Virus record (IMG/VR): IMGVR_UViG_3300024992_000010
Origin: a virus
Reading direction: 5' to 3' (one strand)
DNA length: 44,773 bases
Position numbers and translations under genes: made by a program. The first letter of the stretch is position 1; every line of letters begins with the position of its first letter. This document shows positions 20,730 to 23,196 of the stretch, one piece after another. Under the pieces are notes generated by a model, which saw only the letters and a list, made by a program, of their open reading frames with translations, was not told the DNA's origin and ran no database searches.

Positions 20730-22921
20730 CAGCGCATCACCCCTGCCGCGGGATTGAGGCCATACTTGCCTTCCAGGATGGGGGCCAGTCCATTGCCGCG
20801 CATGATGTTGCGCCCCATCTTGCCCTCTATCTGCTCGACCATGACGTCCAAGGTCAGATTTCCATTTTCGTCCTGGCGCTGCTGGGCCTGACCGCCATTG
20901 CCGGGGGATTCGATCAGATTCAGCTGCACACTGACGCTGGCGCCGGTTCCCTGCACGCCGAGCTGACCGTTGGCGCCGCGCTTGAGGGGGAATATGCCTT
21001 CCGGACCAGCTTCGCCCGCCACGCCGAGGCGCCCGCCATTGCCGAAGAGGAAAGGGGTGATTCGATCGATGATGCCGCCGTCGGCAAAATAGCTCATGGC
21101 ACCATCGAACCACGCACCTTTCGCGGCGAAACCAGTGAGGCCGCCACCGGATACGCCCGTCTTGCCGCCAGCACCCCCGCCAAACAGGCCATTCAGAAAG
21201 CTTCCGAGGAAACCATCCGTTACTTTCTCAAGCATGCCGAGAATCGGCTTTGTGACCAGCTGCCGCGCCAGCATCCTCTCCACGTCGCGCTCGAGTCCCA
21301 GCAGCACGTCAGTGAATTTCTGGCCACTGGAGATGGCATTCTCGAATGCGCTGGTGAATTGCAGCCCCAGGCTCTTGACCAGGTCGGAAGTTTTCTCGGT
21401 CCCCTGTTGCACCGATTGCTGCGCTTTCTTCATGCGCAGCTCGTAATTCTGCGTTTCCTGGTCGATCAGGGCCTGCACCTGGTCGCTTTCCAGCTTCATG
21501 CCACTGATCCGGTCCAGTGAGCGCTGGTGTTCCAGCGCCAGCTGCGCCAGCACCCGCTCTTTATCGGACTGGATCAGTCCCACGTTGAGGCTCTGGTTTT
21601 CCTCGAGGAGTTTTCTTGACGAATCCTCGAATGCCTTGGCCCGCTCCACCTGGTTAGCCTGATCGATCGTGGTTTGCAGATAAGTTTTTACTGCGGGATC
21701 AAGATGGGAATAAGCATCGACCTTGTCCTGGAGTACCTGCAGATGGGATTTCTCGCCTTCTGTAAGCTCACTTACTTCTTTTATCAACTGGGCAATGTCC
21801 CGGATTTCATCCAGGTAAACCGAATCTCCTACACTGCTCGATGAAGTTTTTTTGGTGGAAGTTTTTCTGCCAGGCTTGAGGATGCTCTCAAGTACGGCAT
21901 CACTCGGGGGAGCCTTCGGGATATTAGCGGAAGGTGCAGGATTCAGCCTCGACTCCAGGCCCGCTTTCTCGATACCCAGCGCTTTGAGGCGCGGAATTAG
22001 CGCCTGCGTATGCGCTGCCGTCGCCATATCCCCGGACAGGAATACATTGATTTCGGTCAGCTCGCGCTTGACCTCTTCCAGGCGATCCCGTGCCTTGGAA
22101 ATGTCATCAATCCCAAATGCATGTGCTGCCAAGCCCTTCATTCCTGCCCATACGGCACTCAGCAGTCCACTTTCCCGCGCTGCGGCGCGCATCGATGCCA
22201 ATATGTCATTGAGATGCGGTAAAAGAGTGGTTGCAAGGGATGCTCCAAGTCCGCTGGCGGAAAGTCTTAGTTCTGCCAGTTGGCTATTGAACAGGTTTGA
22301 TTGCTTCGCCAGATCGGAAGTAATCGGATTCAGCTCCCGGCCGCGCTCGAGGAGTTTCCGTAACCCTTCCTCGCCCTCCGCGAGCAATGGCATCAAATCC
22401 TGATAAGACCCCTTCAGAACTTCATTGGCCAAAGCCATCTTGCGCGGATCGTCATCTGACATGCGGGATAGCACGCCGGCGAGCTGGATCAACACGTCCT
22501 CGGAGGTTTTGCCCGTTATGCCCAGCTTCTCCAGGTTGTCGTTATGCTCAACCATGTACTTGGAGACATTCTTGAGTCCCTTTGCCAGGCCATCCAACTT
22601 GGTATCGGATTGCGTAGTGGCAAGCTCCCAGGCGCCAAGCTGCTCTGCCGATAATCCGGTTTTTTTGGAGAGAGTCTCCATGGCATCAGCAGTCGTGATA
22701 ACGTTCCTCGCAGCTCCCAATGCGCCAAGTGCGACCACCCCCATGGCTGCGGCAGTGGCCGCACCAGCTGTGGCAGCTATCCCGCCGAGACGGGACAGTA
22801 CCGCATTTGATGACGAAATCTCCTGGGTCAGGTCACGCGTAATTTTCTTGGCTTCATCCGCACCCCGGCGGTAACCGGAGGGATCGGCCGTGATATCGAT
22901 GTTGACGTCTTTGTCGGTCAA
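20729..22921 (-). CDS. Tail tape measure protein
   Basis: About 730 aa. Ala/Gly-rich hydrophobic segment followed by long coiled-coil repeats. The proposed TTG start at 22921 overlaps the stop of the DUF2829 ORF. The start is uncertain. Confidence 0.8.
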   Translation of the reverse strand: MTDKDVNIDITADPSGYRRGADEAKKITRDLTQEISSSNAVLSRLGGIAATAGAATAAAMGVVALGALGAARNVITTADAMETLSKKTGLSAEQLGAWELATTQSDTKLDGLAKGLKNVSKYMVEHNDNLEKLGITGKTSEDVLIQLAGVLSRMSDDDPRKMALANEVLKGSYQDLMPLLAEGEEGLRKLLERGRELNPITSDLAKQSNLFNSQLAELRLSASGLGASLATTLLPHLNDILASMRAAARESGLLSAVWAGMKGLAAHAFGIDDISKARDRLEEVKRELTEINVFLSGDMATAAHTQALIPRLKALGIEKAGLESRLNPAPSANIPKAPPSDAVLESILKPGRKTSTKKTSSSSVGDSVYLDEIRDIAQLIKEVSELTEGEKSHLQVLQDKVDAYSHLDPAVKTYLQTTIDQANQVERAKAFEDSSRKLLEENQSLNVGLIQSDKERVLAQLALEHQRSLDRISGMKLESDQVQALIDQETQNYELRMKKAQQSVQQGTEKTSDLVKSLGLQFTSAFENAISSGQKFTDVLLGLERDVERMLARQLVTKPILGMLEKVTDGFLGSFLNGLFGGGAGGKTGVSGGGLTGFAAKGAWFDGAMSYFADGGIIDRITPFLFGNGGRLGVAGEAGPEGIFPLKRGANGQLGVQGTGASVSVQLNLIESPGNGGQAQQRQDENGNLTLDVMVEQIEGKMGRNIMRGNGLAPILEGKYGLNPAAGVMR

Positions 22922-23196
22922 GAGACTATGCCCCAGTCGTTCGCCAGCATGTCGGTCTGACTGCAAAGCCACGGAACGATCTCTCCGGTCGCCGTCTTCA
23001 TATCCACGTGCGCGTGATACTTGATATCCGTGCCTTCTGGGTAGATACCGAGCAATGGTGGACGATTCACTTTGAAGATACTTCCAGGAACCAGGAAGAG
23101 AAACATTCCCTTTCCATTCCAACCATCACGGGAGACTTTCTTTCCCAGTTTCAGTGCTTCAAGTGCTTGCCCAAAATCCATATCATTTGCCTTCAT
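22918..23196 (-). CDS. DUF2829 (Tad2-family) small protein; anti-Thoeris sponge candidate
   Basis: 92 aa. [30 protein letters not shown]...[18 protein letters not shown] matches the DUF2829 hallmark. Confidence 0.7.
   Translation of the reverse strand: [92 protein letters not shown]

Follow-up and report, generated by a model that had tools for sequence, protein, structure and literature searches.

The Tad2 proteins (DUF2829) whose structures have been solved are homotetramers with two inter-subunit pockets. Those of the SPO1 and Hgm types bind 1''-3' gcADPR and those of the ModTad2 type bind His-ADPR; ModTad2 blocks Thoeris of type II but not of type I. SPO1 Tad2 (gp34.65; PDB 8SME/8SMF/8SMG) is encoded by a standalone gene located, as judged from the SP8 orthologue, among the small genes of a lytic myovirus and outside the tail operon. 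ModTad2 (8V3E; 9EIB with His-ADPR) comes from a prophage of Myroides odoratus, while HgmTad2/AcrIIA7 and SptTad2 (PDB 8KBI-8KBM, 8WJD) contain an insertion of 35-41 aa and with it a second pocket, in which cGG and cGAMP are bound. Here we describe a Tad2-like gene, most likely of 87 codons (22918..23181, minus strand), found in the IMG/VR record IMGVR_UViG_3300024992_000010, a stretch of 44,773 nt that we call the window and to which all coordinates refer. The source is a temperate, uncultured phage related to Nitrosovibrio and Nitrosospira prophages, and the gene is located between those for the G-T tail assembly chaperone and the tape measure protein (TMP).

This location has to be compared with two other kinds of system. 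In lambda-like siphophages gpG and gpGT are likewise encoded in two overlapping frames between the tube and tape measure genes, with a slippery heptamer at the end of G and a -1 shift into T. There the TMP gene normally comes directly after T, whereas in the window the Tad2-like gene intervenes (what is compared here are the neighbours, not the Tad2 gene itself). The morons of lambdoid phages, found between conserved late genes, are similar in that they are present or absent among collinear relatives, have a composition unlike that of their flanks and have neighbours that are independent of them. A classical moron has a promoter and a terminator of its own. At the Tad2-like gene neither is detectable, and the gene appears instead to be spliced into the translational signals of the TMP gene. 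The explanation that we favour, to which we give as a whole a probability of about 75%, is that this is a dispensable anti-defence passenger gene and not a part of the tail.

A predicted Tad2 protein and its ligand pocket

A first-pass annotation, made by reading the sequence, had pointed out an open reading frame (ORF) of 92 codons at 22918..23196 (minus strand) and assigned it to DUF2829. The frame is present with the sequence quoted, and profile comparison supports the assignment, with a match to PF11195 ("Tad2-like") at E=1.2e-26 (93.4 bits vs a cutoff of 25) that extends over profile positions 1-73 of 73. PHROG 1048 and 872 were also matched. A phmmer search against solved structures retrieved Tad2 proteins only, namely ModTad2 (9eib/8v3e, E=1.4e-23), HgmTad2 (8kbi), SptTad2 (8wjd) and SPO1 Tad2 (8sme). 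An AlphaFold2 monomer model built on 36 homologues (pLDDT 81.4) has helices at residues 3-11 and 75-78 and strands at 15-19, 25-30, 57-62, 68-70 and 84-86, reproducing the helix-plus-sheet layout expected of Tad2. The comparison of predicted structures proposed in the first-pass annotation gave the same answer: Foldseek against the PDB returned 24 matches at E<=1e-3, all of them Tad2 (TM about 0.54), and the next match was at E=0.75. By sequence and predicted fold, then, the gene encodes a new member of a known family, the Tad2 proteins, in an unusual location.

SPO1 Tad2 belongs to the same Pfam family as the window protein, is of nearly the same length (89 vs 87 aa), has the same predicted helix-plus-antiparallel-sheet fold and is 48% identical to it. 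The two differ in the beta2-beta3 segment, and F44 of SPO1 Tad2 has no equivalent in the window protein. According to the paper on SPO1 Tad2, gcADPR is contacted by W25, N26, I63, T65, W73, T78 and D79, with water-mediated contacts by D67, H71 and S76 (we have checked this residue numbering on the SP8 orthologue). W25, N26, I63, T65, W73, S76, T78 and D79 align to W21, N22, M61, T63, W71, S74, T76 and D77 of the 87-aa protein, that is, they are all identical except for I63, which is replaced by Met. In HgmTad2, mutating W21/N22 or S90/T92/D93 abolishes gcADPR binding, and the equivalents of all these residues are identical in the window protein. The pocket motifs GWNG and W-x-x-S-x-T-D are both present (W21, N22, G23, W71, L72, S74, T76 and D77), and across the 36 homologues these eight residues are invariant, save L72 and T76, which are nearly so (90% or more).

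Gene order and occurrence among related phages

Bases 1-127 of the window are repeated at 44647-44773. This terminal overlap of 127 nt indicates that the window was assembled as a circle and is a complete phage genome, about 44.65 kb long. Its structural operon is wholly on the minus strand, and recombinase genes are also present. The local run of genes, tube-G-T-Tad2-TMP, begins with the tail tube gene (23856..24818, 320 aa; PF18906 Phage_tube_2, E=2.5e-15; phrog_290). The gene for tail assembly chaperone G, between the tube and tape measure genes, follows at 23512..23859 (115 aa; PF08748 Phage_TAC_4, E=1.1e-7). A canonical -1 slippery heptamer, A AAA AAC (23515..23521), can be read directly 5' of the G stop TGA (23514-23512), where the gene ends in ...CGG GAA AAA AAC TGA, and the -1 frame runs as KKLIEAARW... 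into the DUF1799 ORF. This is the T segment of the G-T fusion (23183..23520; PF08809, E=3.7e-21), in frame -1 with respect to G and with its stop TGA at 23185-23183. The slippery-site motif, AAAAAAACTGA, is kept in four relatives (L003, L004, L005 and L193). After the Tad2-like gene comes the TMP gene (20729..22921, 730 aa when read from TTG 22921), with 16 PHROG matches, mostly to tape measure families. Judging from these matches, the neighbours of the Tad2-like gene are a standard G/G-T chaperone pair and a TMP gene.

The first-pass annotation held that the gene had been inserted exactly at the junction of G-T and TMP, and close relatives that lack it show precisely this, having the T stop, 2 nt and then the same TTG. 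One of them is the IMG/VR contig L003, whose proteins are 95% (tube), 90% (G), 91% (T) and 90% (TMP) identical to those of the window; its junction reads ...GGT AAA TAG tc TTG ACT..., T and TMP being direct neighbours. The other is a lineage of 16 contigs from several sequencing runs (L193-L198; tube 93%, G 85%, T 86%, TMP 87%), with the junction ...GAT AAG TAG cc TTG GCT.... The tail genes of both are 83-89% identical to the window at the DNA level. Two more divergent relatives do carry a Tad2 gene at the same site, followed by the same TTGA overlap of stop and start codons: the prophages of Nitrosovibrio sp. Nv6 (L004/L006/L088; T 70%, TMP 67%) and of Nitrosospira sp. Nsp1 (L005/L007; T 63%, TMP 61%). 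The Tad2-like gene is a genuine presence/absence polymorphism.

To place this in a wider frame, 52 viral loci were fetched by means of the DUF1799 alignment, 47 of which had a recognisable TMP ORF, and ORFs of at least 45 aa between T and TMP were counted. No such ORF was found in 43 of the 47, in agreement with the earlier statement that the tape measure normally comes straight after G-T. The exceptions were two Tad2 loci, a locus with a 65-aa ORF (L128) and another with about 0.9 kb of small ORFs (L129). Searches for additional relatives returned little. Megablast of positions 20000-27000 against 50,697 phage records gave no match; the window phage has no close cultured relative. The exact pattern of the empty junction had 0 matches in metagenome contigs and only L003 itself in IMG/VR, the pattern of the filled junction had 0 matches in IMG/VR, and a metagenome scan with the T alignment recovered distant relatives only. 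A further protein search with T gave four clusters only, one of which (P0122) yielded the second Tad2-less lineage. A literature search for Tad2 together with "tape measure" found one unrelated paper.

Whether the gene was gained or lost is a different matter. A neighbour-joining tree of the flanking genes groups the sequences as ((window, L003), L193), Nv6, Nsp1, with a very short inner branch. On this topology gain or loss needs two events, or one plus recombination, and parsimony does not decide between them. The synonymous sites of Tad2 are saturated between the window and the Nv6 and Nsp1 prophages (pS 0.71-0.77), like those of the flanks, which speaks against a recent transfer. Besides, the junction of L003, AAATAGTC-TTGAC, resembles the 3' end of Tad2 in the window, CATAGTCTCTTGAC, and the TAG that ends T in L003 could thus have arisen from the Ile-Val codons of Tad2. 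All this is suggestive, and only suggestive, of an old resident gene that was later lost in L003 and L193.

Translational signals at the junction

The first-pass annotation had the Tad2-like gene starting within the end of T. There is indeed an overlap of 14 nt between ATG 23196 and the T stop, but the likely start is ATG 23181, the second Met, situated 1 nt past the T stop (TGAtATG) and giving a product of 87 aa. The PF11195 match begins at residue 6 of the 92-aa reading, i.e., at this second Met; 26 of the 36 aligned homologues begin there too, and most close homologues have 87 aa. We prefer ATG 23181 because both the Pfam match and most homologues begin at it. The upstream ATG is discarded as a by-product of conserved T codons (..C-M-Y/H-E..), being found also in L003, which does not have the Tad2 gene.

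At the other end, the Tad2 stop TGA (22920-22918) and the TMP start TTG (22921-22919) overlap as TTGA (22918..22921). This TTG had been taken for the only plausible TMP start. It is not the only one, as in-frame GTG 22972 and TTG 22966 exist, but comparison with the relatives favours it. The alternative codons (22964-22972, minus strand) arise from the invariant Pro-Trp-Leu-Cys codons of Tad2. In the Nsp1 prophage the TMP frame is closed by a TGA inside Tad2, just upstream of its TTG. Both Tad2-less lineages start TMP at the equivalent TTG, with the shared N-terminus M-(T/A)-D-(K-D)-I/V-N-V/I-D-I-T-A-D-P-S-G-Y-R-R-G. Moreover, the final codon of Tad2 differs among the carriers (TCT Ser, CCT Pro, CAT His), yet its third base is in every case the T required by the TTG. 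We favour TTG 22921 because of these observations, and reject an upstream start on account of the stop in Nsp1 and the TMP starts of the Tad2-less relatives. The N-terminal peptide predicted from the TTG is (M)TDKDVNIDITADPSGYR in the window and MSDKNIDVDISADASGYR in Nv6, and the beginning M-T/S/A-D-K... is kept in five relatives.

The embedding of the gene in the late operon, also proposed in the first-pass annotation, finds support in the sequence: the junctions are of 1 and -4 nt, a Shine-Dalgarno-like element is located within the T codons, and neither a sigma-70-like promoter nor an intrinsic-terminator-like site flanks 22918-23196 on the minus strand. The Tad2-like gene occupies what in the relatives is a 2-nt spacer between the T stop and the TMP start, with no promoter or terminator of its own, and for this reason is probably transcribed together with the late tail genes. 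In the Tad2-less relatives the last T codons contain GAGGG (L003) or GAGGA (L193), 9 nt before the TMP TTG. Where Tad2 is present the equivalent element is 7-8 nt before the Tad2 ATG, as GAAGG in the window (23190..23194, 8 nt) and GAGGAG in Nv6 (7 nt). It appears, then, that the Tad2 ATG makes use of the Shine-Dalgarno sequence that serves the TMP TTG in the relatives without the gene. Since the start of TMP overlaps the Tad2 stop, most of the TMP would probably be synthesised, through termination-reinitiation, by ribosomes coming straight from the Tad2 frame, and a coupling of TMP to Tad2 is plausible from the arrangement of these codons.

Function and alternative explanations

Against Nv6 and Nsp1 the dN/dS of Tad2 is 0.04-0.06, whereas the value for the tube gene is equal or higher and the one for T (0.16-0.30) much higher, and its protein identity to these prophages (89% and 79%) is above that of T (70% and 64%). 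The gene is under strong purifying selection. It also differs in composition from its neighbours, with a GC content of 50.4% (GC3 55.7%) vs about 57% (65-71%) for tube, G, T and TMP. Of the loci examined that encode relatives of the protein (80 viral, 32 genomic), only those of the Nv6 and Nsp1 prophages have the T/TMP context. Homologues with 67-83% identity adjoin gp32, ThyA (thymidylate synthase), RNR (ribonucleotide reductase), TerL or portal genes, and in the closest phage records the Tad2 homologue is part of replication modules. Among cultured phages, Lactobacillus phage Lb has Tad2 immediately ahead of the small terminase gene, IME10 has it between this gene and Rz, and in Klebsiella phage VLCpiS11a it lies where the early region ends; late-region positions are not unprecedented for the family. 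Another location near a tail module is that in L015 (4538-5264), where a 79%-identical homologue comes after a phage lysozyme gene and has a distant DUF1799 (T) homologue about 3.5 kb upstream.

The position itself could be read as a sign of function, with the protein taking part in tail morphogenesis, whether as a structural component or in assembly, for instance as a co-chaperone of the tape measure. After all, the position is kept in three phage lineages with tight gene overlaps, and Tad2 is conserved more strongly than the neighbouring T. However, a structural role has to be rejected when close relatives with tail genes 83-89% identical do entirely without the gene; the junction is empty in 43 of the 47 DUF1799 tail modules, the homologues at 67-83% identity belong to replication, nucleotide-metabolism, terminase and portal surroundings of unrelated phages (podovirus-type ones included), and the ligand pocket of a nucleotide sponge appears intact. 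We regard a tail-assembly role as very unlikely. Even less credit can be given to the notion that the ORF is a decaying, untranslated remnant across which TMP is read in another frame from an upstream start (GTG 22972 or TTG 23122). It is true that the TMP frame is open back to 23122 and that automatic gene callers on identical contigs chose GTG 22972, which makes a TMP of 747 aa overlapping Tad2 by 55 nt. Yet the low dN/dS in the Tad2 frame has been maintained across a saturated synonymous divergence, and the stop codon of Nsp1 and the common TTG and N-terminus of the Tad2-less relatives, described above, are hard to reconcile with a remnant.

Other alternatives accept the Tad2 family and concern what the protein does. 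HgmTad2 is also known as AcrIIA7, a member of DUF2829 for which inhibition of type II-A Cas9 has been reported, and its match to the window protein is significant in both sequence and fold. An anti-CRISPR activity of this type would nevertheless be most surprising, as that of AcrIIA7/HgmTad2 was not reproducible in vitro or in vivo and Cas9 binding was never shown. More serious, and possible if still on the unlikely side, is a sponge with the same fold and mechanism and another cargo, either His-ADPR (type II Thoeris, as for ModTad2) or, through a second pocket as in HgmTad2 and SptTad2, the cyclic dinucleotides of CBASS. ModTad2 is the best solved match by sequence and by fold (Foldseek rank 1), is also encoded by a prophage and has a variable segment of similar length, and some Tad2 homologues do have a second pocket that binds cGG or cGAMP. 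On the other hand, the identity to ModTad2 (49%) is no higher than that to SPO1 Tad2 (48%) or SptTad2 (49%), and at its C-terminus the protein has the motif of Hgm and SPO1 (W-x-x-S-Q-T-D; W-L-C-S-Q-T-D in the window protein), not that of ModTad2 (W-T-P-S-V-S-D). With HgmTad2 and SptTad2 the window protein shares a nearly identical N-terminal helix and WL(A/C)-type C-terminal motif, but not the insertion of the second pocket (35-41 aa; R31, S47, F70 and N85 in Hgm). Its beta2-beta3 segment has about 27 aa, compared with the 41-aa insertion of HgmTad2, it aligns with gaps to SptTad2, and the position of Hgm N85 is occupied by Pro. Because this variable segment is so short, the protein is likely to be without the cyclic-dinucleotide pocket. 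We predict a sponge for a TIR-made signal, with gcADPR somewhat more likely as the ligand.

There are observations that weigh against the explanation that we favour, among them the choice of TMP start by the gene callers. The window protein is as close to the His-ADPR binder ModTad2 as to SPO1 Tad2, and two of the water-mediated SPO1 contacts, D67 and H71, are replaced by T65 and V69. A literature search for Nitrosospira with Thoeris, which bears on the presumed hosts related to Nitrosovibrio and Nitrosospira, found no paper. As for expression, the TMP TTG of the window has only a weak Shine-Dalgarno sequence, GGGG, 11 nt upstream, and a translational coupling of Tad2 to T would be minor at most, because only the frameshifted minority of ribosomes reaches the T stop.

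If the passenger explanation is right, the protein would act as a tetramer, as do its solved homologues, and sequester the second messenger made by the TIR protein of Thoeris, so that the effector ThsA would never be switched on. The Thoeris protein ThsB is activated by the major capsid protein, and this activation requires the late-gene activator rinA (PMC12578639); the alleles of a tail fibre set the sensitivity to type II Thoeris (10.64898/2026.06.04.730250). Late expression of Tad2 would match the timing of such an activation by late structural proteins. One could go beyond this and regard the placement as adaptive, the takeover of the TMP ribosome binding site and the handing on of ribosomes at TTGA serving to time the sponge with the structural proteins that trigger TIR sensors, and the T/TMP junction of DUF1799 modules being a recurrent slot for counter-defence genes. 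This is a tentative idea, which we hold to be rather improbable.

Two other occupants of the T/TMP junction were seen. A 65-aa ORF (MHGPADQLGWASKPRSKF...) is found there in another DUF1799 clade (L128 1996-2193; L149 about 4240-4437), with stop and start codons overlapping on both sides and no Pfam match. In L129 (4291-5214) about 0.9 kb separates T from TMP, with ORFs for small membrane proteins and for a zinc-ribbon protein, and with a fragment of 93 aa matching TMP_3 that may be an interrupted or duplicated TMP start. Upstream of Tad2, in the head-tail part of the late operon, the window encodes a D12-class (Dam-like) DNA methyltransferase (26521-27285, minus strand; PF02086, E=1e-29), with a GC content of 50.5%, low like that of Tad2. 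At the same place L193 has a gene for an SNase-like nuclease (310-810) and the Nv6 prophage has no gene (L006 1054-1322), and the late operon seems to have here another slot for accessory genes.

Other genes of the genome

The rest of the window (all genes below are on the minus strand) has several features of its own. There are three recombinase genes, at 44-1663, 2402-3403 and 10660-11337, one for a large serine recombinase and two for tyrosine integrase-family proteins, which is unusually many for a 45-kb phage. A second D12 methyltransferase gene (3396-4349) overlaps the end of one of the integrase genes. A phage lysozyme gene (PF00959; 31445-31957) is found midway along the structural operon, with head genes on one side and connector genes on the other, and an NlpC/P60 peptidase gene (19434-19841) among the distal tail genes, before a gpJ-like gene. 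Two structural ORFs, at 33637-36222 and 27720-30326, are very long. One, of 861 aa, has an N-terminal Mu-like protease (PF10123) and is possibly a protease-scaffold-capsid fusion; the other, of 868 aa, had no Pfam match. The gene for a beta-helix protein of 525 aa (38331-39908) has the portal gene and the head genes on either side. A protein of 189 aa (24997-25566; neighbours at 24845-24994 and 25569-26488), encoded immediately upstream of the tube gene, has a membrane helix at its N-terminus, contains a charged coiled region and gave no Pfam match; in relatives its gene comes after a DUF2644-like small gene.

Implications

Taken as a whole, this is a good annotation of a gene in a mildly unusual location, and it involves no new mechanism. 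A gene of an uncultured temperate phage has received a confident functional label, that of a predicted signal sponge of the anti-Thoeris type, and a clean natural series of phages with and without the Tad2-like gene has been documented. The case illustrates that a phage can build counter-defence genes into the signals by which an essential late gene is translated, and need not keep them in early anti-defence islands. If the late, TMP-coupled expression matters, it would fit the triggering of Thoeris by capsid and tail proteins, and the junctions between chaperone and tape measure genes would be worth screening for anti-defence cargo.

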